Of a DNA stretch of 64,000 nucleotides, positions 1 through 25,186 are shown one piece after another. Numbering within the stretch: the first letter of the stretch is position 1; every line of letters starts with the position of its first letter. This stretch comes from Dehalococcoidia bacterium (GTDB taxonomy: Bacteria > Chloroflexota > Dehalococcoidia > GIF9 > AB-539-J10): positions 9,743 through 73,742 of the forward strand of contig JAUWQY010000003.1 in assembly GCA_030610855.1 (NCBI GenBank), given 5' to 3'. The notes under the pieces are model-generated. The model was not told the DNA's origin, did no database searches, and saw only the letters and a program-made list of their open reading frames with translations. A program made the position numbers and the translations under genes.

Positions 1-1251
1 AGTGGCTGCTTCATAATCAGATTGGAACTGATATTGTATTGAGTATGTGGGAAGGATGGCTTTGATATTTAATCTGCTTGAGAGAGCTTGGGAGCTCTCG
101 TTGGCTTCCTCCTTAAATTTGGCGAGCCACGTATTTATCGATGCCCACTCAACATCGTGAATAATCCTAGAGGGATTTGACTTCATTCCAATGTGTGAGA
201 GGAGATCATCAAGCTGATGCTGTACGAGTTCGTACCGTTCCGGCGGTACGTCGTAAGACATGGAGAAATCAAACCAAGAACCATGGTCACAGATCTGCTT
301 GATGGTTAGCCCTGTTACTTCATGAATTAAAGAGCCAATAGTGCCAGTTTCGAATAGGCCGTTTCTCGCTTCAACCGTGGCCAATTTTTTTATTAATTGC
401 GCTTTGTGGCGTAGCTGGAGATGGTTTATTAATATGACCGCCGCTGCGGCCAGGTCGCCCCAACCACCTAGGTCAGCCCACCAAATTGGAACGCTGGCAC
501 GATAGTAGTCTAGAACAGTTTTGCCACGTGGTGTAACTACAAAAGTCCGGGTTTCCTTATTTTCTTTGATAAGGCCTATTTGCTTGCACCAATCCATGAA
601 AGGCATAGTATCCCTGGCGACATTCCTCTTGTGGCTAGGTGTCAGTTTTTCGAAGTATGTCTTTGCCCATTTCGCCGAAGCGACTTTCTTCACCGTTTGA
701 GGGAACTTTGTTTGAGGTTCAGTCAAGTCGGCCGATAAATCGGAGAGAATGGCAGCAATTTGAAACAGGTTCAATTCTTTGGATTGGTCAAGACTGGCTA
801 GAATAGCCAGACATAACCGAGTTCTAAGATTCGCGTACGTTCCGCCTGCTTCCTGCAGGTAAGAAGTGTTAGCAATCTTGAAACGGCAGATTCTGTCAAC
901 AAGAATCGCTTCTTCTAGTATATCGTTAGGGCACTCCTGGCTGATTTTGTATTTTGAAAGTGCTCTGCCCCATTCGGTTGGAAAATGAGCAAACTTGGAG
1001 CCGGTTCTTTTCCGATAGACTAGACCTAAGTAACGAGCGGTTTCGAGATGGTCTCTTGCACGACGCCCAATTTGGTCTCTCACCTTAGCGATACTTGCTT
1101 TGCTCAGATGTGTTTCGATCAAGTGGTCTGCTATTGCCATGTCATCGACTGCAATGCCTTTATCAACCAGGTATGCTACACGATTAACCACAGTCCTGAT
1201 TCTGTGCAGAGTGTGTACCCTTGTGACGCTGGGGGCAGATTTCTCTTCCAT
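1..1251 (-). CDS. Partial ORF (runs off the left edge), probable restriction endonuclease partner of the adjacent methyltransferase
   Basis: Manually translated: ATG at 1251 abuts the MTase stop; frame open to position 1 (MEEKSAPSVTRVHTLHRIR...). Winged-helix-like segments ARDHLETARYLGLV..PTEWG and MDWCKQIGLI..VTPRG. Not in the ORF track. Confidence 0.55.
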   Translation of the reverse strand, partial: MEEKSAPSVTRVHTLHRIRTVVNRVAYLVDKGIAVDDMAIADHLIETHLSKASIAKVRDQIGRRARDHLETARYLGLVYRKRTGSKFAHFPTEWGRALSKYKISQECPNDILEEAILVDRICRFKIANTSYLQEAGGTYANLRTRLCLAILASLDQSKELNLFQIAAILSDLSADLTEPQTKFPQTVKKVASAKWAKTYFEKLTPSHKRNVARDTMPFMDWCKQIGLIKENKETRTFVVTPRGKTVLDYYRASVPIWWADLGGWGDLAAAAVILINHLQLRHKAQLIKKLATVEARNGLFETGTIGSLIHEVTGLTIKQICDHGSWFDFSMSYDVPPERYELVQHQLDDLLSHIGMKSNPSRIIHDVEWASINTWLAKFKEEANESSQALSSRLNIKAILPTYSIQYQFQSDYEAAT

Positions 1252-7507: not shown

Positions 7508-8995
7508 ATGAAGCCAATGCTTAAATTGAGGAAGCGTCGGTATTTGGCACCAGTTAGTATCTTTCTTATTGTCACAGCCTTAGTTGCCGGGTTTGCAGGA
7601 TGTGGAGACCGTGGTATCGTCGAGTATACACTGACTATCGCCAGTACTTCTGGAGGGTCAGTGACTTTACCTGGAGAAGGGATTTTTGTCTGTGATGAGG
7701 GAACAATAGCCAGTCTGGTGGCCGAGGCTGAGGCAGGCTACCACTTCGTCAATTGGACTGGGGATGTGGACACCATCGCCAATGTCAACTCCGCGGCAAC
7801 CACAATCATCATAAATGACAACTGTTCTATCACGGCTAATTTCGCGGGCTCAGCATCGGTTCAATATGACCTCACGGTTACCAGTACTTCTGGAGGATCC
7901 GTAGTCTTCCCTGGGGAAGGGACTTTCCCCTGTGACGAGGGAGAGGTGGTCCCTTTGTTTGCTGAGGCCGCGGAAGGCTTCTACTTTGTCAACTGGACTG
8001 GCGATGTGAGTGCCATTACCGATATCAATTCCGCCACAACCACGATCACCATGTATGAAGACTATTCCATCATGGCCAATTTTGCGGGGGCACCGTTGGT
8101 TCAGTATGAACTCACCATCTCCAGTACCTCCGGTGGGTCGGTTGTTGCACCTGGAGAAGGAACCTATATCCGCGACGAGGGAACAGCGGTCAGTCTATTG
8201 GCGGAGGCCGAGGAAGACTACCGCTTTGTGAGTTGGACGGGCGATGTGGCTACCGTTGGCGACGTCAATACAGCTTCAACAAGCATCACTATGAACGACC
8301 ATTACTCGATAAGTGCGAACTTTGAGGAAGATGAAGTACACTTCCCCGATCCCAACCTTGAGGCAGTGATCAGGAATGCGATCAGCAAGCCCACAGATCC
8401 CATCTATCCCTCAGACCTTGAGGGGCTCGCTTCGCTCGATGCTCAAGGTAGGGATATAGTTGACCTCAACGGACTCGAGCACTGCATCAATCTGGTATGG
8501 GTGGCCTTATCGAACAATCAAATAACCGACCTATCGCCACTTGCCAACCTTCCCCACGTGTATTTTCTTGCGCTTACGCAGAACCAGATAAGCAATATGG
8601 CACCACTGACCAACCTAATCAGCCTAACAACATTGTGGATTGGTTGGAATCTGATATCGGTCATCCCACCCCTAGACGACCTCACCAACCTGACAGATCT
8701 GCACCTTTACGGGAACCAGATCGACGATATCTTGCCCCTGGCGAGCCTCACCAAGCTAGAAGACCTCGCGCTTGACTATAACCAGATAAGCAATATCTTA
8801 CCCCTGGCGAGCCTCACCGGCCTAGAACACCTCTCGCTTGACTCTAACCAAATAAGCGATATCTCGCCGCTGGTGGATAACACCGGACTGGGAGAAGGAG
8901 ATTACCTTTTTTTGCAGTCGAATCCTTTGACTTCAGATTCCATCAACGTTTACATACCGGAACTTGAGGCGAGAGGCGTGACTGTCTATTACTAG
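7508..8995 (+). CDS. Lipoprotein with three divergent InlB-B/Flg_new-like repeats and internalin-type LRRs
   Basis: Lipobox FAGC; three LTI.STSGGSV..PGEG..GY.FV.WTGDV repeats; FPDPNLE cap and L.L..NQI.DL.PL repeats. Confidence 0.85.
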   Translation: MKPMLKLRKRRYLAPVSIFLIVTALVAGFAGCGDRGIVEYTLTIASTSGGSVTLPGEGIFVCDEGTIASLVAEAEAGYHFVNWTGDVDTIANVNSAATTIIINDNCSITANFAGSASVQYDLTVTSTSGGSVVFPGEGTFPCDEGEVVPLFAEAAEGFYFVNWTGDVSAITDINSATTTITMYEDYSIMANFAGAPLVQYELTISSTSGGSVVAPGEGTYIRDEGTAVSLLAEAEEDYRFVSWTGDVATVGDVNTASTSITMNDHYSISANFEEDEVHFPDPNLEAVIRNAISKPTDPIYPSDLEGLASLDAQGRDIVDLNGLEHCINLVWVALSNNQITDLSPLANLPHVYFLALTQNQISNMAPLTNLISLTTLWIGWNLISVIPPLDDLTNLTDLHLYGNQIDDILPLASLTKLEDLALDYNQISNILPLASLTGLEHLSLDSNQISDISPLVDNTGLGEGDYLFLQSNPLTSDSINVYIPELEARGVTVYY

Positions 8996-9256
8996 GATCG
9001 GGGCGTTACGAGCCGGGCCGGCGAGTGCGTAGCCGGACGGCACGGAGAACGTAACCTGCCTGATGGAAAATACCGCACGACGATGCTGTGCCTGAGAAGG
9101 GAGTGGGATCTCTCAGGGGGGGCGGTTATTTCCGGGATAATTCCCTGCAGCAAAATAGCGTTTTGTGACTTCTTAACCCTATGGTATGCCTTGGACACCG
9201 CACCATATTGATAATTCCTCCACCACTGATATAATCATTCTACAAGGCTCACACAG

Positions 9257-11374
9257 ATGAAAAGAGTAAGTATGATTCTGATTGTGGCAGTCTTGATTGC
9301 AGGGATAGTGGGCTGTGTTGATACTTATTATGACCTCACCATCTCGAGCACCGAGGGTGGCTCTGTAACCACGCCTGGTGAGGATACTTTCACCTATGAT
9401 GAAGGAACAGTGGTTGACTTGGTGGCAACTCCGGCTGCAGGCTATCGGTTTGACGAGTGGACCGGCGACGTGGACACTATTGATAATGTCCATGCTGCTT
9501 TAACCAATATCGCCATGAATGGCGACTACTCTATCACCGCCGAGTTTGTCAAGCAGTATAACCTCTCCATCAACAGCACAGCGGGAGGTAATGTAACCAC
9601 ACCCGGAGAGGGAGTGCTTACCTATGACGAGGGAACGGTGGTCGACCTGGTGGCTGAGGCTGAGGAAGGTTATTATTTCGTCGAGTGGACTGGCGATGTG
9701 GACACCTTCGGCAATATCACTGCCACTATAACCACCATCACTATGGACGGCGACCATACTATCACCGCAAACTTTGAAGAATATACACCCATGGTCACTG
9801 TAGGCGGTTGGCACATAGTAGGGCTCAAGACTAACGGCACTGTGGTCGCCGTGGGAGAAAACTACTATGGTCAGTGCAATGTCGGTGACTGGACGAACAT
9901 CGTCCAGGTCTCCACAGGCTGGCTGCACACGGTGGGGGTTAGGTCCGACGGCACCGCGGTGGCCACGGGAGACAATGGATACGGGAAGTGTGATGTTGAC
10001 GGCTGGACGGACATCATCCAGGTTGCCGGAGGCCGGCATTACACGGTGGGACTTAAGTGCGACGGCACCGTAGTCGCCGTGGGACGGAACATCTTCGGGC
10101 AATGTGATGTTGGCAACTGGACGGATATCATCCAGGTCTCCGCAGGCTTGGGGCACACGGTGGGACTTAAGTCCGATGGTACTGTGGTCGCCGTGGGAGA
10201 CAACGAGTACGGCCAGTGTGATGTCGGTGGCTGGACAGATGTCGTCCAGGTCTCAGCAGGCAGGCTGCATACGGTCGGGCTTAAGGAGAACGGCACCGTG
10301 GTCGCCGTGGGACGCAACGGCTACGGGCAATGTGATGTCAGTGGCTGGACGGACATCATCCAGGTTTCCGCAGGTGAGTGGCATACTGTGGGACTCAAAT
10401 CTGATGGCATCGTTCTCGCCTTGGGTTACAACCCTGAGGGCGAGCTCGAAGTTGAAAACTGGACGGACATCGTCCAAGTCGCGGCAGGCAGCTATCTCAC
10501 GGTTGGCCTTAAGTCTGACGGTACTGTGGTTGCTACGGGGCAGTACTTCCGCGGGCAGTGTGATGTCAGCGGCTGGGCAGATATCTCCCAGGTGGATGCG
10601 AACGGCAGGCACACTGTTGGGCTTAAGTCCGATGGAACAGTGGTAGCCGTGGGAAGTAACGATCTGGGGCAGTGTGATGTGGGCAACTGGACGGATATCA
10701 TCCAGGTCGTCGCAGGTAGCCATCACACGGTGGGGCTTAGGTCCGATGGCACCGTAGTTGCTATGGGGAACAACCAAAATGGTCAATGCAATGTTGGTAA
10801 CTGGACAGAGACCGTTCAGGTCGCTGGAGGAGGCTGTTACACGGTGGGTCTCAAGTCTGACGGCACTGTGGTCGGCGTGGGTGCCAGCGGGGATGGCCAG
10901 CTCGAAGTTCAAGACTGGACAGACGTTATCCAGGTCGCCGCAGGCGACATGCACACTATGGGGCTTAAATCCGATGGCAGAGTGGTCGCTGTAGGACGGA
11001 ATGAGTACGGCCAGTGTGATGTCGGTGGCTGGACAGATGTCGTCCAGGTCACCGCAGGCATCTATCACACCCTGGGGCTTAGGTCTGATGGCACAGTGGT
11101 CACCGCGGGAGACAACGAGTACGGCCAGTGTGATGTCGGTGGCTGGACAGATGTCGTCCAGGTCTCCACAGGCTACTATCACACGGTGGGGCTTAAGAAC
11201 GACGGCACCACGGTGGCCGTGGGATGGAACGACTGGGGCCAGTGCAATGTCGACGGTTGGACTAACATCGTCCAGGTCGCGGCAAACTGGCAACACACGG
11301 TGGGCCGTAAGTCCGATGGGACCATGGTGGCCGCGGGCCCAGAGGTTCAGCTTGCCAAATGGGATTTGTTCTAG
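9257..11374 (+). CDS. Lipoprotein with two InlB-B-like repeats and about 13-14 RCC1-like repeats
   Basis: Lipobox IVGC; 39-aa repeats HTVGLKSDGTVVAVG.N.YGQCDV..WTDI.QV. Confidence 0.9.
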   Translation: MKRVSMILIVAVLIAGIVGCVDTYYDLTISSTEGGSVTTPGEDTFTYDEGTVVDLVATPAAGYRFDEWTGDVDTIDNVHAALTNIAMNGDYSITAEFVKQYNLSINSTAGGNVTTPGEGVLTYDEGTVVDLVAEAEEGYYFVEWTGDVDTFGNITATITTITMDGDHTITANFEEYTPMVTVGGWHIVGLKTNGTVVAVGENYYGQCNVGDWTNIVQVSTGWLHTVGVRSDGTAVATGDNGYGKCDVDGWTDIIQVAGGRHYTVGLKCDGTVVAVGRNIFGQCDVGNWTDIIQVSAGLGHTVGLKSDGTVVAVGDNEYGQCDVGGWTDVVQVSAGRLHTVGLKENGTVVAVGRNGYGQCDVSGWTDIIQVSAGEWHTVGLKSDGIVLALGYNPEGELEVENWTDIVQVAAGSYLTVGLKSDGTVVATGQYFRGQCDVSGWADISQVDANGRHTVGLKSDGTVVAVGSNDLGQCDVGNWTDIIQVVAGSHHTVGLRSDGTVVAMGNNQNGQCNVGNWTETVQVAGGGCYTVGLKSDGTVVGVGASGDGQLEVQDWTDVIQVAAGDMHTMGLKSDGRVVAVGRNEYGQCDVGGWTDVVQVTAGIYHTLGLRSDGTVVTAGDNEYGQCDVGGWTDVVQVSTGYYHTVGLKNDGTTVAVGWNDWGQCNVDGWTNIVQVAANWQHTVGRKSDGTMVAAGPEVQLAKWDLF
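9811..11340 (+). repeat. 117-bp coding tandem repeats (RCC1-like units)
   Basis: Recurring ctggac..a.atc.tccaggt units; 60 bp identical at 10195-10254 and 11107-11166. Confidence 0.85.
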
Positions 11375-13228: not shown

Positions 13229-13295
13229 GTATCCCCCTTGCTTATTCTTCTCGTCCGTTCTTGTTCTTAATACCCTTTCATAGTCGCCTCCTCAC

Positions 13296-13332
13296 TAAAG
13301 CTAATCCGATGACCGGGGGGTTTCTGTGACAT
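13296..13332 (-). promoter_or_regulatory. Putative ECF-sigma promoter, copy A
   Basis: TGTCACA-N16-CGGATTAGCTTTA, matching copy B at 17858-17893. Confidence 0.6.
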
Positions 13333-13707: not shown

Positions 13708-14454
13708 TCAGCCTTTCCCCTGGACCTGGATTTCCTTGAAGATCCGGGATAACCGGTCCGTCCACCAGGGCGGCAGCTTGTTGTTGCACTGGTAGAAGCC
13801 GAAGTTCTCCATGTCCAGCACCAGGCACGCTTTCTTCTGTGCCACCTTGCCCTTTATGCCCTTGAAGAAGTCATAGGCCTTACAGGTGAAGTCGGCCATT
13901 TCATCCCTCTCCCAAAGCTGGTGGGCGTAGGTAGGTCGCTTCCAGATGATGCGGTGGACAGAAGTGCAGACATTGAGGTCCAGTTTTCGCGAGTAGTGAC
14001 TTATGAAGAGTATGAGCTGCTCCCGCTGTCCGGCGATGGCCAGCAGTTCGTCCAGTTCCACAGCATCACCGCTCTGGCTTCTCCGGGCGTGTGCTGACTG
14101 TGCCGCCTCGTCATAGATCACCACCGCCTTGTCCTTCCATTGGCTCCTCTTAATAGTCACCTGCATCCAGGACGGCGTGATGCGCTGGAAAGATGCCCTC
14201 TGCTTTTCGTCCATCCGGGGCATGTGGAGTATGGCCGGTAGTTTACGCCGGCTGTGCACCCCGTTGGCGATCTCATGGGCCAGCGCCGTCTTGCCGGTCC
14301 TGATGTCGCCCATGATCATCACCACACCCGGATAGGGTATTGCAGAGTAGAGCGCGGTCTTCCGCGGCACTGAGAGGATGATTCGGGCATACTCCTCGCT
14401 TTTCCGCTTCCGGTAGTTGCGGAGCGTGTCAGTTTGGCTCTGCTTCGGTGTCAT
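13708..14454 (-). CDS. P-loop ATPase, Zot/pI-like
   Basis: Walker A GDIRTGKT, Walker B VVIYDEA followed by ARR, ILFISH..LD. Confidence 0.7.
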   Translation of the reverse strand: MTPKQSQTDTLRNYRKRKSEEYARIILSVPRKTALYSAIPYPGVVMIMGDIRTGKTALAHEIANGVHSRRKLPAILHMPRMDEKQRASFQRITPSWMQVTIKRSQWKDKAVVIYDEAAQSAHARRSQSGDAVELDELLAIAGQREQLILFISHYSRKLDLNVCTSVHRIIWKRPTYAHQLWERDEMADFTCKAYDFFKGIKGKVAQKKACLVLDMENFGFYQCNNKLPPWWTDRLSRIFKEIQVQGKG

Positions 14455-14707
14455 CTACACCCCCTTTCTTCCTTGCTAGCTTCACATAGTCGGAGAACGG
14501 ATTGGGCCTGCGGAACTGCCCAACCCTGTTGAGATGCACCCAGACCACCGCCCAGTACCCGAAGTTGTTGAACTTGTACCGGGCCAGGTTGCGATGGGCT
14601 TTCCCCTCGGCCTCATTGAGATCTTGTTCTAGCCGGGCCTTGATAGCAGTAGCCGCATCTACTGCGTCCCCCGATGGTAGCTTTAGTTCGCATTGCTTGT
14701 GTGTCAT
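14429..14707 (-). CDS. Hypothetical protein (92 aa)
   Basis: AGAGGGGTG RBS, operonic position. Confidence 0.65.
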   Translation of the reverse strand: MTHKQCELKLPSGDAVDAATAIKARLEQDLNEAEGKAHRNLARYKFNNFGYWAVVWVHLNRVGQFRRPNPFSDYVKLARKKGGVDDTEAEPN

Positions 14708-14722
14708 AGTTCACCCCTCTTT

Positions 14723-14968
14723 CTAGTGGATGTTTATTTCCCCATCGTAATCGCCATGGCGACCTGTAACAGACTCTGCAATCCGTATGGCCTCAACTCT
14801 CTTATCCTGCCAGGATTGCCCAAGTTTGGCATCACAATAAATATCTAGCCATCCCCAGGCTGTGCCAGTGCCATGCTTAACTCTGACATTGGTGAATCCT
14901 GCTTCTATTAAGGCATCCTTAACAGCTTTGGTTTCCTCTCGATGTGTTTTATGGTTTCTCCAGGTCAT
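14723..14968 (-). CDS. Hypothetical protein (81 aa)
   Basis: MTWRNHK...VKHGTGTAWGWL; AAGGGGGT RBS. Confidence 0.65.
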   Translation of the reverse strand: MTWRNHKTHREETKAVKDALIEAGFTNVRVKHGTGTAWGWLDIYCDAKLGQSWQDKRVEAIRIAESVTGRHGDYDGEINIH

Positions 14969-15107
14969 TTTTACCCCCTTTCTAAGGCTATTCCAGCGAG
15001 TTGGAGTTCTTGTTGCATAGCTTTTCTTGAGCTTAACTGCCCAGGGGAGGGCCGGACAGGTTATCCGGCTTGTCCGGATAGTCCGGCCCTTAGTCTGGTA
15101 AGTCAAA

Positions 15108-16157
15108 CTACCATTCCACGTTCACTGGCATAATGACGTGAATGGTCCCGTTTTGCTTGACGACTCCTGGAGATTGGGCGTTCTTTGTCCGCAGTGTTAC
15201 CGGTCCGCTTGTCCTGGCCAGCACGTCTTTGATGTAGTTGCCATCGAAGGCCATCTTGGCCTTGCCCATGGCCGGCACCGGCACCGTGATTTCGCTCTTC
15301 TCATCGGCTTTGGCAGAGACGATGAGATTCGCCTGTTTGGTCTGGAACCGCACGATGTTTCTGCTGGGCTTGGTGGCCATGACCACCTTCAAGGCGTCCT
15401 TTAAGGCCGCGCTGTCCACAGTGAGGGGCTTTCCGTTCTTGGGGATCACGTGCTTGTAGTTCGGATAGGTCCCCTCAATTAGCCGTGCCGTGAGCACCAG
15501 CCCTTCACCGACAAAGCTGATATGATGCTCGCCTTTATGAAGTGATACTTTGCCGGGCATGAGCCTCTCGATGAGCTTTATCGCCTTGCCAGGAACGATA
15601 GTCTGCTCCGACTGCCCCTTTGCCTTGACTGTCGTTTCCGCCAGTCGGAAGCCGTCGGCGGCAGCCAGCGCTATTCTGCCCTTGTCAGGAGTGAAGCAGA
15701 CGCCAGTCAGGACAGGTCTGCACTCCTCTTTCGCCATAGCATAACTAATTTGCTTCATGGCGCTTGCCAGACCTGTGATCTCGACCGCTTTCCCCTTCAC
15801 CCCCGGCACCACCGGGAAGTCCTGGGATTCCTGGCATTCAATTGTGATCGCGGCTCCAGCTTCCACCTTCAGTGAGTTTGCGCCCACCAAAGATAGGCTG
15901 ACTGTTTCCGTCTTCACTGCCCGGAGTAAGATTTCCAGGTCCCGAGGCGGGACGCAGACCGCTCCCTGCCGTGTGATATTGGCCTTGCAGCTCCCTGTTA
16001 CCGCGACTTCCAGGTCAGTGCCAGTGAGCGTGACTTGCCCACCGGCCGCCCGGATGAGGACAGACGTGCACACCGGCAGAAGATGCTTCCCCGGCACTGC
16101 GGACTTGACCTTGCCCAAGGTCTCCAGGAGTGCCATACGCTGTGTCGTCGCTCGCAT
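15108..16157 (-). CDS. dnaN: DNA polymerase III beta sliding clamp homolog (element-encoded)
   Basis: GTDLE, RPVLTGV, AADGFRLA, RLIEGTYPNY..VIP, VIMPV. Confidence 0.9.
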   Translation of the reverse strand: MRATTQRMALLETLGKVKSAVPGKHLLPVCTSVLIRAAGGQVTLTGTDLEVAVTGSCKANITRQGAVCVPPRDLEILLRAVKTETVSLSLVGANSLKVEAGAAITIECQESQDFPVVPGVKGKAVEITGLASAMKQISYAMAKEECRPVLTGVCFTPDKGRIALAAADGFRLAETTVKAKGQSEQTIVPGKAIKLIERLMPGKVSLHKGEHHISFVGEGLVLTARLIEGTYPNYKHVIPKNGKPLTVDSAALKDALKVVMATKPSRNIVRFQTKQANLIVSAKADEKSEITVPVPAMGKAKMAFDGNYIKDVLARTSGPVTLRTKNAQSPGVVKQNGTIHVIMPVNVEW

Positions 16158-16258
16158 AGAGCACCCCCTTTAGTAAGTTATTGTCCCCGTTAGCGCCACC
16201 CGGGCCGCACCACTTGGCGGTGGGGACTTTGCGGCCCTGGGGAGCTCAGCTCCCCCCT

Positions 16259-16459
16259 CTATGATTTCAGTCGAAAGTCCAGCACGGCGGACAGTACCCC
16301 TTTGGCCTCGTTAAGCTCCTGGACGATAATCTCGGAGTCGGTCATCTCCTGCACATCGGACAGTATGGCCATGACAAACAGGATGCTGCCATCCACCTGC
16401 CCTAACAGGTACCGGTAAAGCCCTAACTCCATTCTGTGCCTCTCAGATACTGACTGCAT
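16259..16459 (-). CDS. Hypothetical protein (66 aa)
   Basis: AAGGGGGTG RBS; MAILSDVQE motif. Confidence 0.6.
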   Translation of the reverse strand: MQSVSERHRMELGLYRYLLGQVDGSILFVMAILSDVQEMTDSEIIVQELNEAKGVLSAVLDFRLKS

Positions 16460-16542
16460 TTGTCACCCCCTTGCATTAGACCTGAGGCTGAACGCCCCAC
16501 CGCCGGGGGCAAAGTCGCCCTTGCCCCCGGGTGGTCGAGCGT

Positions 16543-16710
16543 TTAGCTCCGCGGCTTGATGGCATTGAGGTTCACCTTAATATCACTGCCAGGGACTTCA
16601 ACGAAGCCATTGGTAGTGGCTACCACCAGCGTCTTGCCTGTCTTGGACGGAACACCGCCGTTGATGGGACAGGTGATGACCAGGTTCCCATTCTTGATCT
16701 CGAACTTCAT
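16543..16710 (-). CDS. Small phage-type beta-rich protein (55 aa)
   Basis: Manually translated MKFEIKNGNLVITCPINGGVPSKTGKTLVVATTNGFVEVPGSDIKVNLNAIKPRS; AAGGGGGTG RBS. Confidence 0.75.
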   Translation of the reverse strand: MKFEIKNGNLVITCPINGGVPSKTGKTLVVATTNGFVEVPGSDIKVNLNAIKPRS

Positions 16711-16726
16711 GTAGCACCCCCTTATC

Positions 16727-17041
16727 TTATTTTGCCAATTCGCGCACGCAGGCCTTCATCTTCTTGACCTGCTGCCGCGTGTATCCAGGACAAAACTTGT
16801 CCAGGTTGATCGTAGTCCTGACCGGCAATTTGTCAGGACTACGACCCGATAGCTCCGGTTTGAGCGTGCCGCCGCCGTTCTTGTGGAAGGCCACCACTGC
16901 CCCCTGGTATGTAACATACCGAAAGGGCCGTGGCTTTTGCTTGCGGCGTCTTGCAGCCTCGAGCTGGGCGTTACAATTACCGCAATAGCCCTTCTCCCTC
17001 GCGGGACGACGCTCGCAAATGAGGCATTTCCTCGTCTGCAT
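16727..17041 (-). CDS. Basic protein with N-terminal zinc finger
   Basis: CLIC..CGNC; AAGGGGGTG RBS. Confidence 0.7.
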   Translation of the reverse strand: MQTRKCLICERRPAREKGYCGNCNAQLEAARRRKQKPRPFRYVTYQGAVVAFHKNGGGTLKPELSGRSPDKLPVRTTINLDKFCPGYTRQQVKKMKACVRELAK

Positions 17042-17055
17042 ACATCACCCCCTTG

Positions 17056-17850
17056 TTCAGTTCCTTGGGGCTTTTGGCCCCATCGCTGGCCGCTAACAAG
17101 CCAAAGCCGGCTAGCGGCCAGTACATGGAATCAAAAACATAACTCCCCCGACCACGAAAGCCGGGGGGCTGAGCCTCGCGCCATTCTCCCTGTGACAGTC
17201 CACCCGTCCACCACGTCACGGTAGTTCCACCTGGGACTTTTGCAGGCGGATAGACTCTCATGGCCGGTAAGGGCCTTGGGGGCTTGCTATACTGCCCCTG
17301 CTGACGGCCGAACACACGCCCCGCTTACCCCACGGAGCCTCTACCAAGTAAGGACGTGGGAAAGGCGTATGCCGGCTGATGCCAGCCGCGCCCTGTGCTC
17401 TTGGAGCTAGGGGGAGATACCCCACAGCCGTACCATGAGCTGCAACCACCGTGCCAGCAGTCCACCTTTGACGTAGGCGCACTATGGCAATTGCACCCCG
17501 GTCCTTTTACGTCAGGCGGGACGGCAACCGATTCGCTCGTCGCACGCTAGGCTGATTTAGGCCAGCCGGTCCCCGTAGCTTAACCTCGCACCACGGCTAG
17601 GGCCAGGACTCGACCTTATCCCGGGAGCTGCGTTTGGAATACCCTATGCCTGGCGGTCAGACCGCAGGCATCCCGGTGTGCTCTATGTTAAGCTATTGGC
17701 TCAGGTGCCCGCGTCCCCCACCTCTAACTTAGAGGTCAGCCCCGAAAGCCCCGAGTGTGGGCACGGGTTAGGATTCCTCGGCCGCTCATAGAGTATGGGC
17801 CGTTGCAATAGCAAAGGCGACGGGCCCGAAGGCCCGCCGCCCCCACAGAT
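17056..17850 (-). ncRNA. Candidate large structured non-coding/leader RNA
   Basis: No credible ORF; more than 12 adjacent stem-loops, a cUUCGg tetraloop, long-range stems; lies directly downstream of promoter copy B. Confidence 0.55.
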
Positions 17851-17857
17851 CGCTCAA

Positions 17858-17893
17858 TAAAGCTAATCCGACATGTAGCGGTTTTTGTTACAT
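17858..17893 (-). promoter_or_regulatory. Putative ECF-sigma promoter, copy B
   Basis: TGTAACA-N15-CGGATTAGCTTTA. Confidence 0.6.
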
Positions 17894-18586
17894 TAGCTAT
17901 GCTTTGGCTTTGAGCGGTGTTAGTTGATCAGTAGCTTATATCCCTCAGCTTTGACCCAGCGGCTAAGCCGCTGCCGCTCTGTGTTGCCCAGGCTTTGCGT
18001 TTGCTTAGGCCTGCCGCCTTTGGCGTTGCGCGGCGCTCCGAGCGGTTTGCCTTGCAGGCGCTTCAATACCAGGCCCTGAATATCCTTCGGGATTTGCTGC
18101 CATAGCCGCCGCGCATCGAGTCTGTCAATCATTTTAGCTTCAAACTCTACTTCGCCAACTAGCAATTCAGCCAGTTCTACCTCTTCTCCGTCGCTGTTTG
18201 TTATAACTTCGGATAGATAACCCTGGTGGAATTGACTGTGCAGCTTGTACTTCGCCCACCAGTTCTGCCAGTCACGCCGCGCTATGGTGTAGGCGAAGGC
18301 CGGATCTTCAGTACCGGCGGCCAGGATTGCTGTCATGAGTTCCTGGAACATATCCTGGCGCTCATTAGCCGGCACTTTGCGGCTGAAGATATATGCCGCT
18401 TCGACTGCCAGCCTGGCATTCAGTCCCAGGCCCTCGAGTGATTGCCGCGTTTGCTTCACAAGCTCAATATAATCATCATCAACGGCAAAATTAGGCCCCA
18501 GGAATGCTTTGCTCACTCTGTGGTATGTAGTATTTAACATGTTCGATCCCCCCGTTTTGTTATTTACTACATGCCGGATTAGCTTT
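17859..18586. repeat. 20-bp inverted repeat pair flanking the sigma-like gene
   Basis: aaagctaatccgacatgtag (17859-17878) versus ctacatgccggattagcttt (18567-18586), 19/20 complementary. Confidence 0.85.
17920..18540 (-). CDS. ECF-type sigma-factor-like protein
   Basis: Region 2-like ERQDMFQE...AFAYTIARRDWQNWWAK; region 4-like LWQQIPKD...ERQRLSRW; 206 aa. Confidence 0.6.
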   Translation of the reverse strand: MLNTTYHRVSKAFLGPNFAVDDDYIELVKQTRQSLEGLGLNARLAVEAAYIFSRKVPANERQDMFQELMTAILAAGTEDPAFAYTIARRDWQNWWAKYKLHSQFHQGYLSEVITNSDGEEVELAELLVGEVEFEAKMIDRLDARRLWQQIPKDIQGLVLKRLQGKPLGAPRNAKGGRPKQTQSLGNTERQRLSRWVKAEGYKLLIN

Positions 18587-18848: not shown

Positions 18849-19481
18849 TTACTCGACTTCTATGACTTTGACTCTGTGTTGTGGTTTGTTCAATTCTGTA
18901 ATCTCCAGCAGCTTCTCCTTGGACACAGGTAAACGCAGCTTTCCTGCACGAACGTCACCGACTAGCCCGTCAATCAAGAGAGAGAATGCGTCTTCACTGA
19001 AAAGGAGATAGTCATTTTCCCGTAGTTTGCTCATAATCTCGGACTGTGGTCGACGTGATTCACGGGCTAACTGAGATACAGAGATGCCCCTGACATCGTC
19101 AGGCAGCCCCCTGGGGCCGATACATACCATGACCAGCCCTAAAGGTTGTTGTTTATCAGTGGGACCCTGGAGTAGACAATCTGTGATAGCTGACAGCCTG
19201 CCTTTGGAAACTATCGCTGTCACAGCCAATTCAACCAGGGACAACATCAGCTTCGCCTCCCCGTGACCACGACTGGCTGAAGCCTCAATCTCTCTCAACT
19301 GCTGCAACTGCTCCACAATAGTACGGTATACTGCTCTCAGACTTGACGCTTCATCCTCTCGCTTCAGCCGGGTCTCTTCTCGGGCAAATAGTGCGTCCAG
19401 AGCGAGACCCGTTTCGGTCAGGTTGTTCGCCTTGGACGGCAAATCCTCCAGGCGGCTATGAAATGGTTTCAGATCTCCCAT
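18849..19481 (-). CDS. Hypothetical protein
   Basis: 210-aa ORF overlapping the upstream gene. Confidence 0.65.
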   Translation of the reverse strand: MGDLKPFHSRLEDLPSKANNLTETGLALDALFAREETRLKREDEASSLRAVYRTIVEQLQQLREIEASASRGHGEAKLMLSLVELAVTAIVSKGRLSAITDCLLQGPTDKQQPLGLVMVCIGPRGLPDDVRGISVSQLARESRRPQSEIMSKLRENDYLLFSEDAFSLLIDGLVGDVRAGKLRLPVSKEKLLEITELNKPQHRVKVIEVE

Positions 19482-20836
19482 GCTTCTAAATCGTTGATCA
19501 GCCTCTCAGCGGTAAGCGACAGTCCTGTGTATTGCAGAGAGTAGCTATGTTGGCGTTTCAGCCAGATGCCGAGGCCTCGAACAACTGGTAAGACGAGGGT
19601 CTTGACCCGGTTGCCTGCGATATCTTCCTCGCCTCTTATTAAAGCTGGCAAGTCGTTGAGCCATTCGCTAACCTGAAGAATCCCCTGGCATCGCCCGACC
19701 TCACTGCCCACTTCAAGGGCTTGGTCCCTGAGCCGCCTTATCTCCGCCAGAGCCTCCTCGTTTCCGCGTCGCAGTTCCTCGCCGAAGTTATCGATTGCCT
19801 CCTGAGCGATAGGGATGATCATGGCGATCTCTTGGCTCACGTTCTCCCTAGTTTCCTTAATGCTGGCCTCCAGATTCATCTTCTCCTGTTTGAGGCTGTC
19901 AATAACTGCCCCGGTGGCCTCTATCTCACTCTTGCTCCTGGCAATAGCTTGCTTCATCCTATCCATCTCCTGCTGTCGGCTCTGGATTAGCGTTTCGAAG
20001 GTCAGCCCTTTCTCGAGACTCCCAAGCTCGTGCAGTAACCGGCTCCTGAGTTCGGAGGACTTGATAGCGTGATGCTGGGCAATCGCTTGTAGCTTTTCCT
20101 GAAACTCACTCAATTCCTTGAGGGTGAACCCTATATCCTCAAGCTTCTGCGTCTCGCGCTTCAGAGCGGAGAGGGTTGTTTCCGCCTTCTGGGCCTTGGG
20201 CTCCATGTTAGCAATCCGGCGTGACAGTGTGCGTTCACGTCTCTCCAGGTCCTTGACCCGAGGGGTTAGCAGTTTGCTCTTCTGTTCGAGCATGGCTACT
20301 GAGCTGGCCAGTTCCTCTCTCTGCCTGGTTAGGTCGGCGAGCTGCTTTTGGCAGTGCTTCACTTTGTTTGACATAGGTTCCAGGTCGGTGGCTTTCTTCT
20401 CCAGTTCGCGAACTTTGTTATCGAGAGCCTCGAGGCTCAAGCCGCTCCTCTGCTGGACCTGCTGAATACTGTAGACCAGTTGGACGAACTCCCTGGCATC
20501 GTCCTCGTCTGGCACCGACTTAAGAATCATCGGCCAGCGGTCGATGTCGGCCGGCTCGAGCCCGAGTTCGTTGATTCGATTCAGAAGGATGAGCCCCGTA
20601 GCGCACTGCCCGGGAGTTAGTTTTGACCGTTTCAGGTCGAAGGACAACTCCCGAAGCGTTTCGATGTGTTCACCGATATCGGCCGCCTCGGGAAAGCTTC
20701 CTGCCTTCAACTCAGCGACGACGTTGGCCACTGTCCCTTTACTGATACTGCCTCTGGCGGCAATATCATCATAGGACAGGCCGGACAGGTAAAGCCTGAC
20801 AATGGTGAGTTTCTTTTTCGCTGTTAACTTCTCCAT
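19469..20836 (-). CDS. N-terminal HTH plus long coiled-coil protein (KfrA-like architecture)
   Basis: LYLSGLSYDDIAARGSISKGTVANVV; heptad-rich body; AAAGGAG RBS. Confidence 0.75.
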   Translation of the reverse strand: MEKLTAKKKLTIVRLYLSGLSYDDIAARGSISKGTVANVVAELKAGSFPEAADIGEHIETLRELSFDLKRSKLTPGQCATGLILLNRINELGLEPADIDRWPMILKSVPDEDDAREFVQLVYSIQQVQQRSGLSLEALDNKVRELEKKATDLEPMSNKVKHCQKQLADLTRQREELASSVAMLEQKSKLLTPRVKDLERRERTLSRRIANMEPKAQKAETTLSALKRETQKLEDIGFTLKELSEFQEKLQAIAQHHAIKSSELRSRLLHELGSLEKGLTFETLIQSRQQEMDRMKQAIARSKSEIEATGAVIDSLKQEKMNLEASIKETRENVSQEIAMIIPIAQEAIDNFGEELRRGNEEALAEIRRLRDQALEVGSEVGRCQGILQVSEWLNDLPALIRGEEDIAGNRVKTLVLPVVRGLGIWLKRQHSYSLQYTGLSLTAERLINDLEAWEI

Positions 20837-20884
20837 TCTCACTCTCCTTTTATAGGTGATTCTTGCACCCACAAATCCTGGATA

Positions 20885-21573: not shown

Positions 21574-22260
21574 TCAATCTTCCTTGCTCCAGAGTTTCTG
21601 ATACCATTCTTGATGTTCTGTGCCTGATATCTTTCGATACCGGGCTGTAGTGTTGAAGCTTTGGTGGCCTAAATGCTCCTGAAGAAGCCGCAGCCCGTCG
21701 CCTGAATCATCAAGTTTTACTGCATGGACTGCGAAGGCATCGCGCAATCGGTGCGGGCTGACGTTATGAACTCTTCCGGTCTCAGGATTCACAAGCTTTG
21801 GTAGACCTGCTCTTTCAGCACAGGTACGGACTATCTGCCAACCTCGATGCCGGTTTATTCCGAAGATAAACAACTTACCGTCTCTGGATACCGGGCCGTC
21901 GCGTCCGATGTACTCCTTCAGCATGCCCAAAGTACCACTGTCTACCGGCAGCACCCTCTGCCGACGACGTTCCTGTTCCTCAGCCTGAGCCTTGTCAATC
22001 ATGCTCCCGCACTTGGGGCAAAATGCGTGGCTTCTGCCCAGTCTCTGTCCACACTCGCTACACGATAGTTTTAGGCGAGCTTTGAGGTGTTTGATTGTGA
22101 CTATGTCATGTTCAAAGTCCACATCTTCAACAGTCAAAGCTAGAGCCTCACTGATTCGGCAACCAAGATGGAATAACACGCGGATCAACAGCCTATCCCT
22201 CACAGTGGTGGCTGCCCTCTCCATCAGAGTTACCTCGTGTGGTTCAACGTAGGCTTTCAT
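21574..22260 (-). CDS. Small tyrosine recombinase (catalytic domain only) with zinc-ribbon insert
   Basis: GCRISEAL, HRLR, LGH, TTARY; CSEC..CPKC. Confidence 0.9.
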   Translation of the reverse strand: MKAYVEPHEVTLMERAATTVRDRLLIRVLFHLGCRISEALALTVEDVDFEHDIVTIKHLKARLKLSCSECGQRLGRSHAFCPKCGSMIDKAQAEEQERRRQRVLPVDSGTLGMLKEYIGRDGPVSRDGKLFIFGINRHRGWQIVRTCAERAGLPKLVNPETGRVHNVSPHRLRDAFAVHAVKLDDSGDGLRLLQEHLGHQSFNTTARYRKISGTEHQEWYQKLWSKED

Positions 22261-22874: not shown

Positions 22875-23831
22875 ATGCCAACTAAGGGTCTACGGGCTTG
22901 GATTGGGGATGATGAGGAACTTCAAATTTGTCGTTACACACTTGAGTTTCGTGATATGCGGCGCACCAAGCTAGCAGAGAAGATACGGGCCGAAGTGCAT
23001 TGGCCGGGCAAGCGTCCCGAAATCGAGGTGTTGGAGCGCAAAATTTCACATTACCGGAAACACGCTGTTGATCATCCTGAAGACAAGCCCTGGAGCATGG
23101 CTAGTCTAGACAGATACCCAATCTCTCCGCAGGCAATCCCGCCTGTGCTTGCGTGTTGGAAGAACGCTGTCCAAAGCGGTACCATCCTAACCATACGGGA
23201 AGCCAAATGGGCGTCGAGGCTCTACGCGCTCATGGCGGACGAAGTACACCAGAGCTTTATCTGGCATCATGGTGCCAAGTGGCTGGAGCTAGACACGTCG
23301 TGTAACAATGCAATCGTGAAGAAATCCTCTGCTCGGCAATCATCTAGGCGTAATAAAGAGACGGCCAGCGAGTTTTCACTACGGGCCGAAGAAGGTGATC
23401 ATGGAGCAATAGAATGCCCGAAATGTCGGACACCAATAGGAATAGGCCCCACAACTCGAACGGCCATATGTCTCGGCTGTGAAGGTCAGTTCGACATCGT
23501 TAGGATTCCAGCAGGGACCGAAGACCCAGGCACTCTTCGTAAAGAAACCTCCGTAGTGAAGACTATCCCGCCAATTATTGAAGGTGTTAGCTCCCTGACT
23601 TACTGCGCGAAAGGCTATGCGAACCTGGAGTTGATATATGACCTGATAGGTCAGCCTTTTGATTCAACATGTATGGATAGGCGAATTATGGGATTGGGCA
23701 GGTTGATACCTGACCTCAATGACGAGGCTTCGCTTTTGCCATATCTGGCAATGGCCATTCAAGACTTCAAAGACTTTAGAGACAAAGTGAGGAGGCTAAC
23801 CAATGAGAGGTCACATAAAAAAAAGAGGTAA
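22875..23831 (+). CDS. Hypothetical protein with zinc-ribbon insert, occupying the repressor position divergent from xis
   Basis: CPKC..CLGC; overlaps the integrase start. Confidence 0.6.
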   Translation: MPTKGLRAWIGDDEELQICRYTLEFRDMRRTKLAEKIRAEVHWPGKRPEIEVLERKISHYRKHAVDHPEDKPWSMASLDRYPISPQAIPPVLACWKNAVQSGTILTIREAKWASRLYALMADEVHQSFIWHHGAKWLELDTSCNNAIVKKSSARQSSRRNKETASEFSLRAEEGDHGAIECPKCRTPIGIGPTTRTAICLGCEGQFDIVRIPAGTEDPGTLRKETSVVKTIPPIIEGVSSLTYCAKGYANLELIYDLIGQPFDSTCMDRRIMGLGRLIPDLNDEASLLPYLAMAIQDFKDFRDKVRRLTNERSHKKKR

Positions 23832-24954
23832 GAACAGCTATTCCATCGTGGTCAGCTTGGGTAAGGATGCTACTACCGGCAAATACAAATACCAGTGGGT
23901 AAGCGTCAAGGGAACTAAAAAGGACGCCGAAAAGCGGCTTAGCGAGTTGCTGCACCAGCTCGATCACGGGGCTTTTATTAGGCCCGGTAGAACAACACTG
24001 AGGGAATACCTAGAGAAATGGCTCTCAGAGTACGTGAAACCCAACCTGTCACCGCGAGGCTTTGAAAGGTATCAAGGCATTGTCATACATTATTTTATCC
24101 CTGAAATGGGGAATATTATCCTGACGCAGCTAAAACCGGAGCACATTCAGAAGCACTATATCTCCATGTTCAATAAGGGCCTCACCGCCGGAACGGTTCG
24201 CTATCACCATGCTGTGATTCACAAGGCATTACAGACGGCTATCAAGTGGGGACTGTTAAACCATAACGCAGTTGAGGGTGCGGACGTACCCCACTCCCGT
24301 CAAAATGAGATGCAGACATGGGATGAATATGAAGTCAACCGCTTCTTGGAGACTACCAGGGGTAGTCATTACTATGCTCTATTCCACACGGCACTATTCA
24401 CCGGGATGCGACGGTCTGAATTGCTAGCATTGCAGTGGCGAGACATAGACCTCCATCAAATTCACGTTAACCGCTCACTTCACCAGCTAAGGGATGGTAG
24501 CTACGTGTTTACACCGCCGAAATCAGCCAAAAGTAGACGTACCGTAGCCCTCTCCCCTTCATCCGTTCTTACGCTAACAGAGCATAAAGAAAAGCAACAG
24601 GGAATGCGAGGCATGTTAGGGACACGGCTAAAGAACGATGACTTGGTCTTCAGCACACCGGATGGCAAGCCATTACGTCCTAACACGGTCACCCGTGCGT
24701 GGGCTACGTTGGCAGCTAAAGCAGGTGTCAAACCTATTCGCTTGCATGATGCACGCCACAGCCACGCCTCTTTGATGCTCAAGCAGGGGGTACACCCCAA
24801 GATAGTCCAAGAGAGGCTAGGCCATTCCAGTATTCAGATCACCCTTGATACTTACAGTCACGTAGCCCCTGGACTTCAGCAGGCAGCAGCGGAGAGCTTT
24901 GATAGACTGCTTAACAGCAAGAGTGAAGACCTGACTGTTGAAAATCATTATTAG
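23803..24954 (+). CDS. Tyrosine integrase (ICEBs1/phage type)
   Basis: MRGHIKKRG arm-binding N-terminus; TGMRRSE, LHDARH, LGHS, TLDTYSH. Confidence 0.95.
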   Translation: MRGHIKKRGKNSYSIVVSLGKDATTGKYKYQWVSVKGTKKDAEKRLSELLHQLDHGAFIRPGRTTLREYLEKWLSEYVKPNLSPRGFERYQGIVIHYFIPEMGNIILTQLKPEHIQKHYISMFNKGLTAGTVRYHHAVIHKALQTAIKWGLLNHNAVEGADVPHSRQNEMQTWDEYEVNRFLETTRGSHYYALFHTALFTGMRRSELLALQWRDIDLHQIHVNRSLHQLRDGSYVFTPPKSAKSRRTVALSPSSVLTLTEHKEKQQGMRGMLGTRLKNDDLVFSTPDGKPLRPNTVTRAWATLAAKAGVKPIRLHDARHSHASLMLKQGVHPKIVQERLGHSSIQITLDTYSHVAPGLQQAAAESFDRLLNSKSEDLTVENHY

Positions 24955-25031: not shown

Positions 25032-25108
25032 TGGTAGCGCATACCGGATTCGAACCGGTGATCTCCTCCTTGAGAGGGAGGTGTCCTAGGCCTCTAGACG
25101 AATGCGCC
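25032..25108 (-). tRNA. tRNA-Glu(CTC)
   Basis: Cloverleaf, CCTCC-CT CTC AA-GGAGG, GTTCGAAT, encoded CCA. Confidence 0.97.
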
Positions 25109-25115
25109 GCACTAG

Positions 25116-25186
25116 CTGGGGATCCAGGATTCGAACCTGGCCTAACTGATCCAGAGTCAGTCGTCCTACCGCTAGACTAATCCCCA
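25116..25186 (-). tRNA. tRNA-Gln(CTG)
   Basis: ACTGA-CT CTG GA-TCAGT; acceptor TGGGGAT/ATCCCCA; CCA not encoded. Confidence 0.95.

Follow-up and report, generated by a model that had tools for sequence, protein, structure and literature searches.

Introduction

Bacterial RNAs of more than 500 nucleotides (nt) with dense covariation are very rare, and those known to us (rRNAs, RNase P, group I and II introns, OLE, GOLLD, ROOL and HEARO/omega RNA) each act as a ribozyme, a guide, a ribonucleoprotein (RNP) scaffold or a self-assembling cage. We describe here a large structured RNA encoded on the minus strand of a 64,000-nt stretch of a Dehalococcoidia genome (contig JAUWQY010000003.1; this whole stretch is called the window), where it lies between a gene for a sigma-like protein and a gene for a zinc-ribbon protein inside an integrated element of ~13 kb. 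The Dehalococcoidia are poorly studied and have no genetic system, and the biology of their mobile elements is almost unknown.

The RNA resembles GOLLD and ROOL in its length of hundreds of nt, its many covarying helices, its occurrence in mobile elements or prophages and the lack of a known biochemical function. However, it does not match their Rfam models, and GOLLD and ROOL are typically free-standing genes, often near tRNAs, whereas the RNA here sits between the sigma and zinc-ribbon genes and runs into the ribosome-binding site (RBS) of the latter. OLE is a highly conserved, operon-embedded RNA of ~600 nt that forms an RNP and is adjacent to the gene of a protein partner. It also differs from the RNA here, which gave no Rfam match; OLE is a chromosomal RNA of the Bacillota and not of mobile elements.

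A second group of described systems acts in cis. conAn2, put and EAR are cis-acting RNAs near the starts of long operons, conAn2 and put being found in mobile elements. conAn2 follows a small protein gene and measures up to 600 bp (PMC8191782). These RNAs are either much smaller than the one here or weakly conserved, and conAn2 is not known to have a defined covarying architecture. Their hosts are Gram-positive plasmids or lambdoid phages, and the gene upstream of the RNA here is sigma-like, with no conAn1 homolog by name or family. In riboswitch and T-box leaders, as at our locus, a strong terminator-like hairpin shares strands with an alternative helix that covaries, close upstream of the genes under control. 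However, no ligand- or tRNA-binding motif was recognised here, the U tract is not canonically placed in 12 of 38 sequences, and the putative sensor would be 3 to 8 times larger than any riboswitch or T-box leader that we know of. The dCas12f-sigmaE system likewise couples a sigma factor of the extracytoplasmic function (ECF) type genetically to a non-coding RNA, and its structure (PDB 9n9q) appeared at rank 34 of our Foldseek search; its guide RNA is bound by dCas12f, however, which leaves a remote analogy only. The scanned genes of the element included none that resembled Cas12f or TnpB.

A conserved structured RNA on the minus strand

The RNA occupies a gap without a long open reading frame (ORF) that extends on the minus strand (17042-17920) from the stop codon of a 206-amino-acid (aa) ORF at 17920 to the ATG at 17041. 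A first-pass annotation of the sequence had described this gap as a densely base-paired leader and listed 11 stems in it. The gap is real and structured on the minus strand, but four of the listed stems were coincidences of one sequence. Duplicate removal left 47 unique homologous sequences, 38 of them full-length.

RNAalifold applied to the alignment of the 38 full-length sequences (A2; 1106 columns, 73% mean column identity) gave a consensus fold of 203 pairs in 35 helices, with 80 pairs doubly changed. An independent count on A2 found 98.4% of 7707 cells paired, with double changes in 80 pairs and in 570 cells. By comparison, 500 shuffled alignments showed a mean of 45.1 +/- 3.1 doubly changed pairs and 160 cells, and none of the 500 reached the observed values. 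Shuffle tests overstate significance for related sequences, whereas controls with slid partners preserve relatedness; six such controls, with the partners shifted by 1-3 columns, gave 8-23 doubly changed pairs and 13-61 cells.

A divergent copy provided an outside view of the fold. This copy (locus L151 in genome G080, from another family of the same order) was found at 56 bits (E 3e-15) with R1, a covariance model of the core with 273 positions and 82 pairs that was built from a core alignment (A3) of 84% mean column identity. The fold was derived without L151, which shares 52% identity with the consensus and was added by plain sequence alignment. L151 retains 104 of 142 scorable pairs (73%), compared to 34-45% with slid partners. 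Twenty-eight pairs are doubly changed in L151, 17 of them with pair types absent from the 38 sequences, and the changes include pairs that are invariant in the main family (in H3, H7, H15, H24 and H34). For example, pair 201-425 of H3 changes from C-G to U-A.

The folding is strand-specific. The consensus fold reached -237.8 in the sense direction and -137.2 for the reverse-complement alignment, and many G-U pairs on the minus strand agree with the strand that the first-pass annotation had chosen from the mismatches in its stems. The whole gap folded to -410.5 kcal/mol on the minus strand (z -4.2; 0 of 20 dinucleotide shuffles as good), against a z of -2.4 on the plus strand (1/20 shuffles as good). 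For the 278-nt core (17216-17493), z was -3.7 on the minus strand (0/200 shuffles as good) and -0.9 on the plus strand (35/200). Variable hairpin modules were inserted at fixed helix tips (columns 328-370; columns 458-493, ~20/38 sequences), which is typical of large functional RNAs.

On the 38-sequence alignment, five of the 11 listed stems were supported. These are CCCACG/CGTGGG (5/6 pairs doubly changed), TACGCC/GGCGTG (3/6), TCCGCCTG/CAGGTGGA (2/8, 100% canonical), the 12-bp stem CTGGCCGCTAGC/GTTAGCGGCCAG (8/12) and the 5' hairpin at 17816-17841, which is supported via H1/H2 (6/9) and where the window's own row is out of register. Two more stems, ACCTC/GAGGT (99% canonical, with a variable loop) and CCCCCG/CGGGGG (95.6% canonical, in conflict with a covarying helix), were invariant, so covariation within the family cannot probe them. 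The other four were not conserved: TGACGTA/TACGTCA was canonical in 50%, the 9-bp long-range stem TAGCTTAAC/GTTAAGCTA in 57% and CGGCTG/CAGCCG in 73%, and for ATGCCTG/CAGGCAT (68%) covariation favours CUGCG/CGCAG instead. A scan for pseudoknots outside the consensus fold gave three short extra candidates (Table 1), which we judged to be chance or register shifts. Sequestration of the RBS by a long-range helix to the Shine-Dalgarno sequence (H12/H13) was also rejected; this helix had no covariation and, by eye, no counterpart in L151.

No protein-coding signal was found in the gap. The longest ORF per RNA body had 51-128 aa when both strands were scanned, and no ORF of at least 60 aa with a common start, end or frame was found across the 38 homologs. 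ORFs of that length span the conserved centre in at most 30 of the 38 sequences, with at least eight different starts and many ends and frames. Single-base insertions and deletions are common in the RNA homologs. Variable sites showed no codon periodicity; the phase values in the cleanest block were 0.44/0.38/0.47, with no third-position bias.

Comparison with known RNA families

The only matches of the whole window to Rfam 15 at gathering score were four tRNAs. With E values up to 10, the region 16900-18000 gave five matches, all far below threshold, and the best of them reached 18 bits on the opposite strand against a gathering score of 50. The RNA thus belongs to none of the Rfam 15 families, including GOLLD, ROOL, OLE, HEARO, raiA, RNase P, tmRNA, 6S and the group I/II introns, in agreement with the first-pass annotation, which had recognised no family. 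Apparent resemblances to the tmRNA 5' end (GGGGCUGA), to group I R/S elements and to RNase P (AAAGUCC, GGUAAG) were rejected, since no covariance model matches. The phage and plasmid collections, searched by blastn in 'distant' mode, contained no match to the RNA. In IMG/VR, two DNA patterns gave 0 and 74 matches, none of the 74 being confirmed by blastn, and protein-seeded scans with the sigma and zinc-ribbon proteins gave 0 relatives and 1 short 14-residue match. We found no description of this RNA family in the literature searched; the supplementary motif lists of PMC8191782, PMC11109978 and Weinberg-type surveys might contain one.

The absence of Rfam matches, of blastn matches in the phage and plasmid collections and of a literature description makes this RNA a new family, which is large (~750-800 nt), multi-domain and encoded on the minus strand. 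We regard it as almost certain that the gap encodes a real and conserved structured RNA whose family is absent from Rfam 15. The first-pass annotation had named four outcomes that would speak against a folded RNA, and the results were the opposite in each case: no known family, folding beyond the level of shuffles, strong covariation and no coding signal. With more than 500 nt, many covarying helices, a conserved core and no conserved ORF, the RNA in these respects falls into the descriptive class of large ornate structured non-coding RNAs.

The sigma - RNA - zinc-ribbon module

The RNA is locked in a module with its two neighbouring genes. The 206-aa gene was present in 42 of the 47 unique loci and the zinc-ribbon gene in 41, and the other five and six loci, respectively, are cut by the contig end. 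L151 keeps the trio as well, at 32% identity for the sigma-like and 46% for the zinc-ribbon protein. The RNA core shows 84% column identity, versus ~70% and ~50% identity for the flanking proteins.

The 206-aa protein is probably an ECF-type sigma factor. Eight of the 120 homologs listed were named 'sigma24 family' by the Joint Genome Institute (JGI), and the best match in the Atlas (0.96) was a 'sigma-70 region 2' cluster. Foldseek with the structural model (predicted local distance difference test, pLDDT, 61.7) returned ECF sigma factors at all of ranks 1-10, with E values of 0.12-0.79. Pfam (E up to 0.01) and PHROGs gave no match for this protein. The names of the homologs, the Atlas hits and the Foldseek ranks are hints that agree with the earlier description of this neighbour as sigma-like. 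The basic zinc-ribbon protein has a weak Pfam DZR_2 match, four invariant cysteines (C6, C9, C20 and C23) and a basic linker; its model (pLDDT 83) showed no clear structural relative.

Anatomy of the RNA

The coordinates of the RNA, its domains and the neighbouring genes are listed in Table 1.

Table 1. Positions in the window of the RNA parts and element genes; pseudoknot candidates are given as columns of alignment A2.
Feature	Position	Strand	Details
Promoter-like motif AATGTAACA, 12 nt, TGTCGGATTAGCT	17861-17894	-	AAC, 16 nt, CGG geometry
5' hairpin, then conserved CTTTGCTATTG	17814-17845	-	H1/H2; 6/9 pairs doubly changed
Domain A	17612-17801	-	closing helix H3 GGCC/GGCC; H4-H7, ACCUC/GAGGU hairpin, variable insertion site, H9/H10
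Domain B	17145-17602	-	helices H15-H32; holds the most conserved core, 17216-17493 (model R1)
Helix H32, candidate antiterminator pairing	17150-17182	-	5/11 pairs doubly changed, in 6-21 of 38 sequences per pair
Hairpin T, terminator-like, CCCCCG...CGGGGG (core CCCCC/GGGGG)	17145-17167	-	terminator scan
Domain C, long irregular hairpin H33-H35 incl. U-rich run	17070-17138	-	12/22 pairs of H34+H35 doubly changed
Shine-Dalgarno AAGGGGGTG of downstream gene	17046-17054	-	invariant in 38 sequences; ATG at 17041
Pseudoknot candidates (rejected)	columns 624-627 with 994-997; 729-733 with 756-761; 785-790 with 1027-1032		outside consensus fold
104-aa basic zinc-ribbon protein gene	16727-17041	-	directly downstream of RNA
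206-aa ECF-like sigma factor gene	17920-18540	-	directly upstream of RNA
210-aa ORF	18849-19481	-
467-aa helix-turn-helix (sigma-70 region 4-like) + coiled-coil protein gene	19469-20872	-
Second, short integrase-like gene with zinc-ribbon insert	21574-22260	-
Tyrosine integrase gene	23803-24954

The promoter-like motif lies 20-30 nt past the sigma stop codon, in the conserved form TGTAACA, 12 nt, TATCGGAAT. A weight matrix from the 38 homologs scored 40 at the motif of the window and found 0 matches in each of five shuffles. When the motif was searched in a degenerate form across 24 long homologous loci, it matched 30 times on the sense and 7 times on the antisense strand; 16 matches precede the RNA, and the motif also lies 43-137 nt before the AAA, clamp, 66-aa, 92-aa and 323-aa genes. 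In the window, the -10-like half and the bases that follow it recur upstream of the 323-aa gene, at 13291-13309 (repeat D7) and, taken further, up to 13331. A weaker copy (14986-15019, minus strand) falls within the Smr-like ORF as annotated (14723-15106, TTG start), at its 5' end; the true start of this gene is probably an ATG near 14968, behind a consensus RBS. The AAC, 16 nt, CG geometry resembles that of ECF sigma promoters, and we read the motif as the putative promoter of the element's own sigma factor.

The 5' hairpin is terminator-like and stands between the promoter-like motif and the RNA core; its equivalent in L151 ends in a T5 tail. Eight of the 38 homologs have a second motif copy 3' of this hairpin (columns 160-195), which suggests that the functional core begins at helix H3. 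Doubly changed pairs occur in helices H4, H6, H7, H9 and H10 of domain A. Helix H14 (CCCU with GGGG), which closes domain B, had no covariation. In domain C, H34 was favoured over a small alternative hairpin on a separate check.

H34 is the last covarying helix, and it stops ~25 nt before the invariant RBS of the zinc-ribbon gene. Together with the promoter-like motif upstream, this agrees with the placement of the gap as a leader in the first-pass annotation. No clean terminator was found between the RNA and the next gene. The junction of RNA and RBS is intact even in locus L083, where a further ORF of 57 aa, with a duplicated RBS, separates the RNA from the zinc-ribbon gene. This ORF is cysteine-rich (L083 7273-7446, minus strand) and is also present in L118, the two being metagenome copies. 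The same RBS recurs before other element genes (repeats D3, D8 and D9). In nearly every element gene, an extended RBS, AAGGGGGTG(A), stands 4-6 nt before the start codon (14450-17055, minus strand). Within the RNA, several conserved runs of G5 and C5-6 either complement or mimic the extended RBS.

Hairpin T was flagged as terminator-like by the terminator scan and shares its strands with other helices. It overlaps H32 and the two are mutually exclusive; its 3' strand is also the partner of H14, which T likewise excludes. The 5-bp core of T is paired in 37-38 of the 38 sequences and the outer pairs in 24-38, and T is more stable than H32 in 38/38, by a mean of 12.3 kcal/mol. A U-rich run follows directly 3' of T in ~26/38 sequences. 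Both mutually exclusive helices thus appear to be kept, H32 by covariation in 5 of its 11 pairs and T by its presence in 38/38, and two positions of T are compensated in L151 by eye. This layout is like that of a terminator and antiterminator, and it is the basis of the switch mechanism that we prefer.

Proposed function

We tentatively favour the reading that the RNA is a very large cis-acting sensor or leader that gates read-through into the replication module of the element. It would be transcribed from the element's own sigma-type promoter motif, as the 5' part of a transcript that runs on through the zinc-ribbon gene to the genes for replication (sliding clamp, AAA ATPase and 323-aa protein). 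Correct folding of domain B would form H32 and H14 and withhold the strands of hairpin T, and with these strands withheld RNA polymerase could read on into the replication module. If T formed instead, transcription would stop and a discrete RNA of ~730 nt would be released. The element's sigma holoenzyme and the zinc-ribbon protein are candidates for the signal that may tip the balance. The leader anatomy is based on four observations, namely that the promoter-like motif recurs before genes of the module, that H34 ends ~25 nt before the RBS, that the junction survives insertion of an ORF and that the module is kept at sigma and zinc-ribbon identities as low as 32% and 46%.

Several points weigh against this proposal. 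Hairpin T has no covariation within the 38 sequences, and its compensation in L151 is a reading by eye, the automatic alignment being out of register at this place. In 12 of the 38 sequences, T and the U run are set apart by insertions or substitutions. This run also pairs within the covarying helix H34, where its changes are compensated, so selection seems to act on pairing and not on U-richness. H14, the proposed competitor of T, does not covary, and the terminator-like hairpin 5' of the RNA core is unexplained by a switch. Further down the operon, no canonical intrinsic terminators were found. We infer the start, the end and the strand of the transcript all from sequence; a comparison with four metatranscriptome runs at 80% likeness matched no contig to the stretch, which speaks neither for nor against expression. 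We know of no cis-regulatory leader that nears this size or conservation. The core is also more conserved than either flanking protein, which fits stand-alone ornate RNAs better.

It is also possible, if open to more doubt, that the RNA is a stand-alone, trans-acting or structural molecule in the manner of OLE, GOLLD or ROOL, co-transcribed with the operon or processed from it. It might form an RNP with the basic zinc-ribbon protein, or be a self-assembling or catalytic RNA that serves replication or spread of the element. The ~35 helices, the modular insertions at helix tips and a core more conserved than its neighbours are hallmarks of ornate RNAs, and hairpin T with the U run could be the RNA's own terminator. 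The zinc-ribbon gene is adjacent wherever the contig allows (41/47 loci), and we liken this to oapA, which adjoins OLE. GOLLD and ROOL provide precedents in mobile elements (PMC12286853). However, T as the mature 3' end would preclude the covarying H32 in the mature RNA, and the covarying H34 and H35 lie beyond T, up to the RBS. Selection on structure therefore continues into the 5' untranslated region of the mRNA. Inspection of the alignment also showed no conserved self-complementary loop.

A processive antitermination RNA, which in the manner of put, EAR or conAn2 would modify RNA polymerase in cis to ignore the terminators of the operon, is improbable here. The position would suit one, since the RNA heads a long mobile-element operon just after a small regulator gene, and structured GC-rich hairpins lie between downstream genes. 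However, no canonical intrinsic terminators were found in these downstream parts of the operon, the first terminator-like hairpin stands upstream of the RNA core and thus beyond the RNA's reach, and the processive antitermination RNAs known to us are much smaller. According to PMC8191782, conAn2 lies after conAn1, is 260-600 bp long and shares only 30-40% sequence identity between regions, unlike the highly conserved RNA here.

Still less probable is a replication primer or origin-associated RNA that, in the manner of ColE1 RNA II, forms a persistent hybrid at an origin beside the replication genes. ColE1 RNA II is also structured and several hundred nt long, and the RNA here has conserved G and C runs and immediately precedes the replication module with its clamp and AAA ATPase. 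But no iterons or AT-rich unwinding region were found in or after the RNA, a protein gene begins ~25 nt past the last helix, and the covariation goes far beyond the needs of a primer. That the gap is not a functional RNA, its conservation reflecting DNA-level signals or recent common descent, is hardly credible: most copies come from one genus-level group and relatedness inflates the significance of the shuffles, yet the slid-partner controls keep that relatedness and reach 8-23 doubly changed pairs against 80, and neither the strand asymmetry nor the 28 compensated pairs of L151 at 52% identity would be expected of a DNA signal.

A wider claim is that of a new giant RNA class working with an ECF sigma factor of the element, either as the largest cis-acting transcription switch or as an RNA subunit of an RNP with the sigma or zinc-ribbon protein; we regard this as rather unlikely as a whole. 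If it were true, the switch version would license a mobile element to replicate according to the state in which it finds the sigma holoenzyme or the zinc-ribbon protein, and in either version the sigma - RNA - zinc-ribbon module has no described counterpart. The candidate itself comes with 47 unique sequences, a fold backed by covariation, a defined genetic module and a specific switch hypothesis, and adds a family to the very few giant bacterial RNAs known. Its tight coupling to a sigma gene offers a direct experimental handle. The narrow distribution found so far means that its general importance may be limited.

Distribution

The RNA stretch is single-copy in its own genome (1.63 Mb, 76 contigs). 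The genome searches were made on samples, and the absences given here hold for the genomes searched. By blastn-type searches, 5 of 41 relatives and 8 of 52 genomes from the genus carry the RNA (own genome counted in both), and the genome homologs from these searches had 73-81% identity. A 20-mer of the core retrieved 52 metagenome contigs, 45 of which were confirmed by blastn, and a second search word retrieved 12 genome contigs, 7 of them confirmed; the latter contigs came from metagenome-assembled genomes labelled Dehalococcoidia, Dehalococcoidales, Chloroflexota, Chloroflexia or Chloroflexi. The other 7 metagenome and 5 genome loci with a search word were discarded, as model R1 gave two fragments only (E 0.06 and 0.57) and blastn did not confirm them.

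Model R1 scored 285 bits at the core in the window. Of 151 genomes that were sampled from the order, 5 matched this model, G080 being one of them. Within the family of G080, 1 of 77 genomes matched, namely G080 itself. No credible match was obtained in 151 genomes sampled from the class; one in G302 (20.5 bits) was rejected, with both strands matching and conserved blocks missing. A search of 401 class-level genomes gave the zinc-ribbon protein in 2, each of which belongs to the window's own genus. Among the genomes sampled, the RNA is thus confined to elements of Dehalococcoidia, and the range found so far is one genus-level group and one genome of a sister family.

The integrative element

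The ~13-kb element is flanked on one side by tRNA-Glu and tRNA-Gln genes (25032-25186) and the host ribosomal protein genes S9 and L13, and on the other by genes for surface proteins with RCC1 and leucine-rich repeats (LRR). Following the integrase gene are the short integrase-like gene, the 467-aa gene, the 206-aa gene, the RNA and the zinc-ribbon gene, and then two small ORFs, a DNA polymerase III beta clamp (phrog_947, 1e-64), the Smr-like ORF, an AAA ATPase and the 323-aa protein. The order that recurs in homologous loci is integrase-like, 168-aa, 206-aa, RNA, zinc-ribbon, clamp, AAA ATPase and 323-aa. The scanned ORFs of the element include no recognisable capsid, tail or conjugation gene, and its tRNA side shares no direct repeat of at least 14 nt with the opposite end that could mark an attachment site.

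The short integrase-like ORF encodes 228 aa, is tyrosine-recombinase-like with the zinc ribbon at residues 60-93, and shows 67-81% identity across the element family. The 467-aa and 210-aa genes form an optional cassette, which only L120 and L127 among the covering loci also have. Strong GC-rich hairpins without U tails, e.g. CCACCCGGGGGCAA...TTGCCCCCGGCGGTGG, lie between the small ORFs and the clamp gene (16150-16560, minus strand). In the same region, a second GCAAAGTCCC at ~16225 was likened to the invariant loop of H30 as a repeated protein site; it was dropped, being present in 1 of 47 loci only. Just outside the element (7508-11374, plus strand), two large predicted surface proteins carry an InlB B-repeat, LRR and twelve RCC1 repeats, and a 114-nt tandem DNA repeat is located at 10801-11256.

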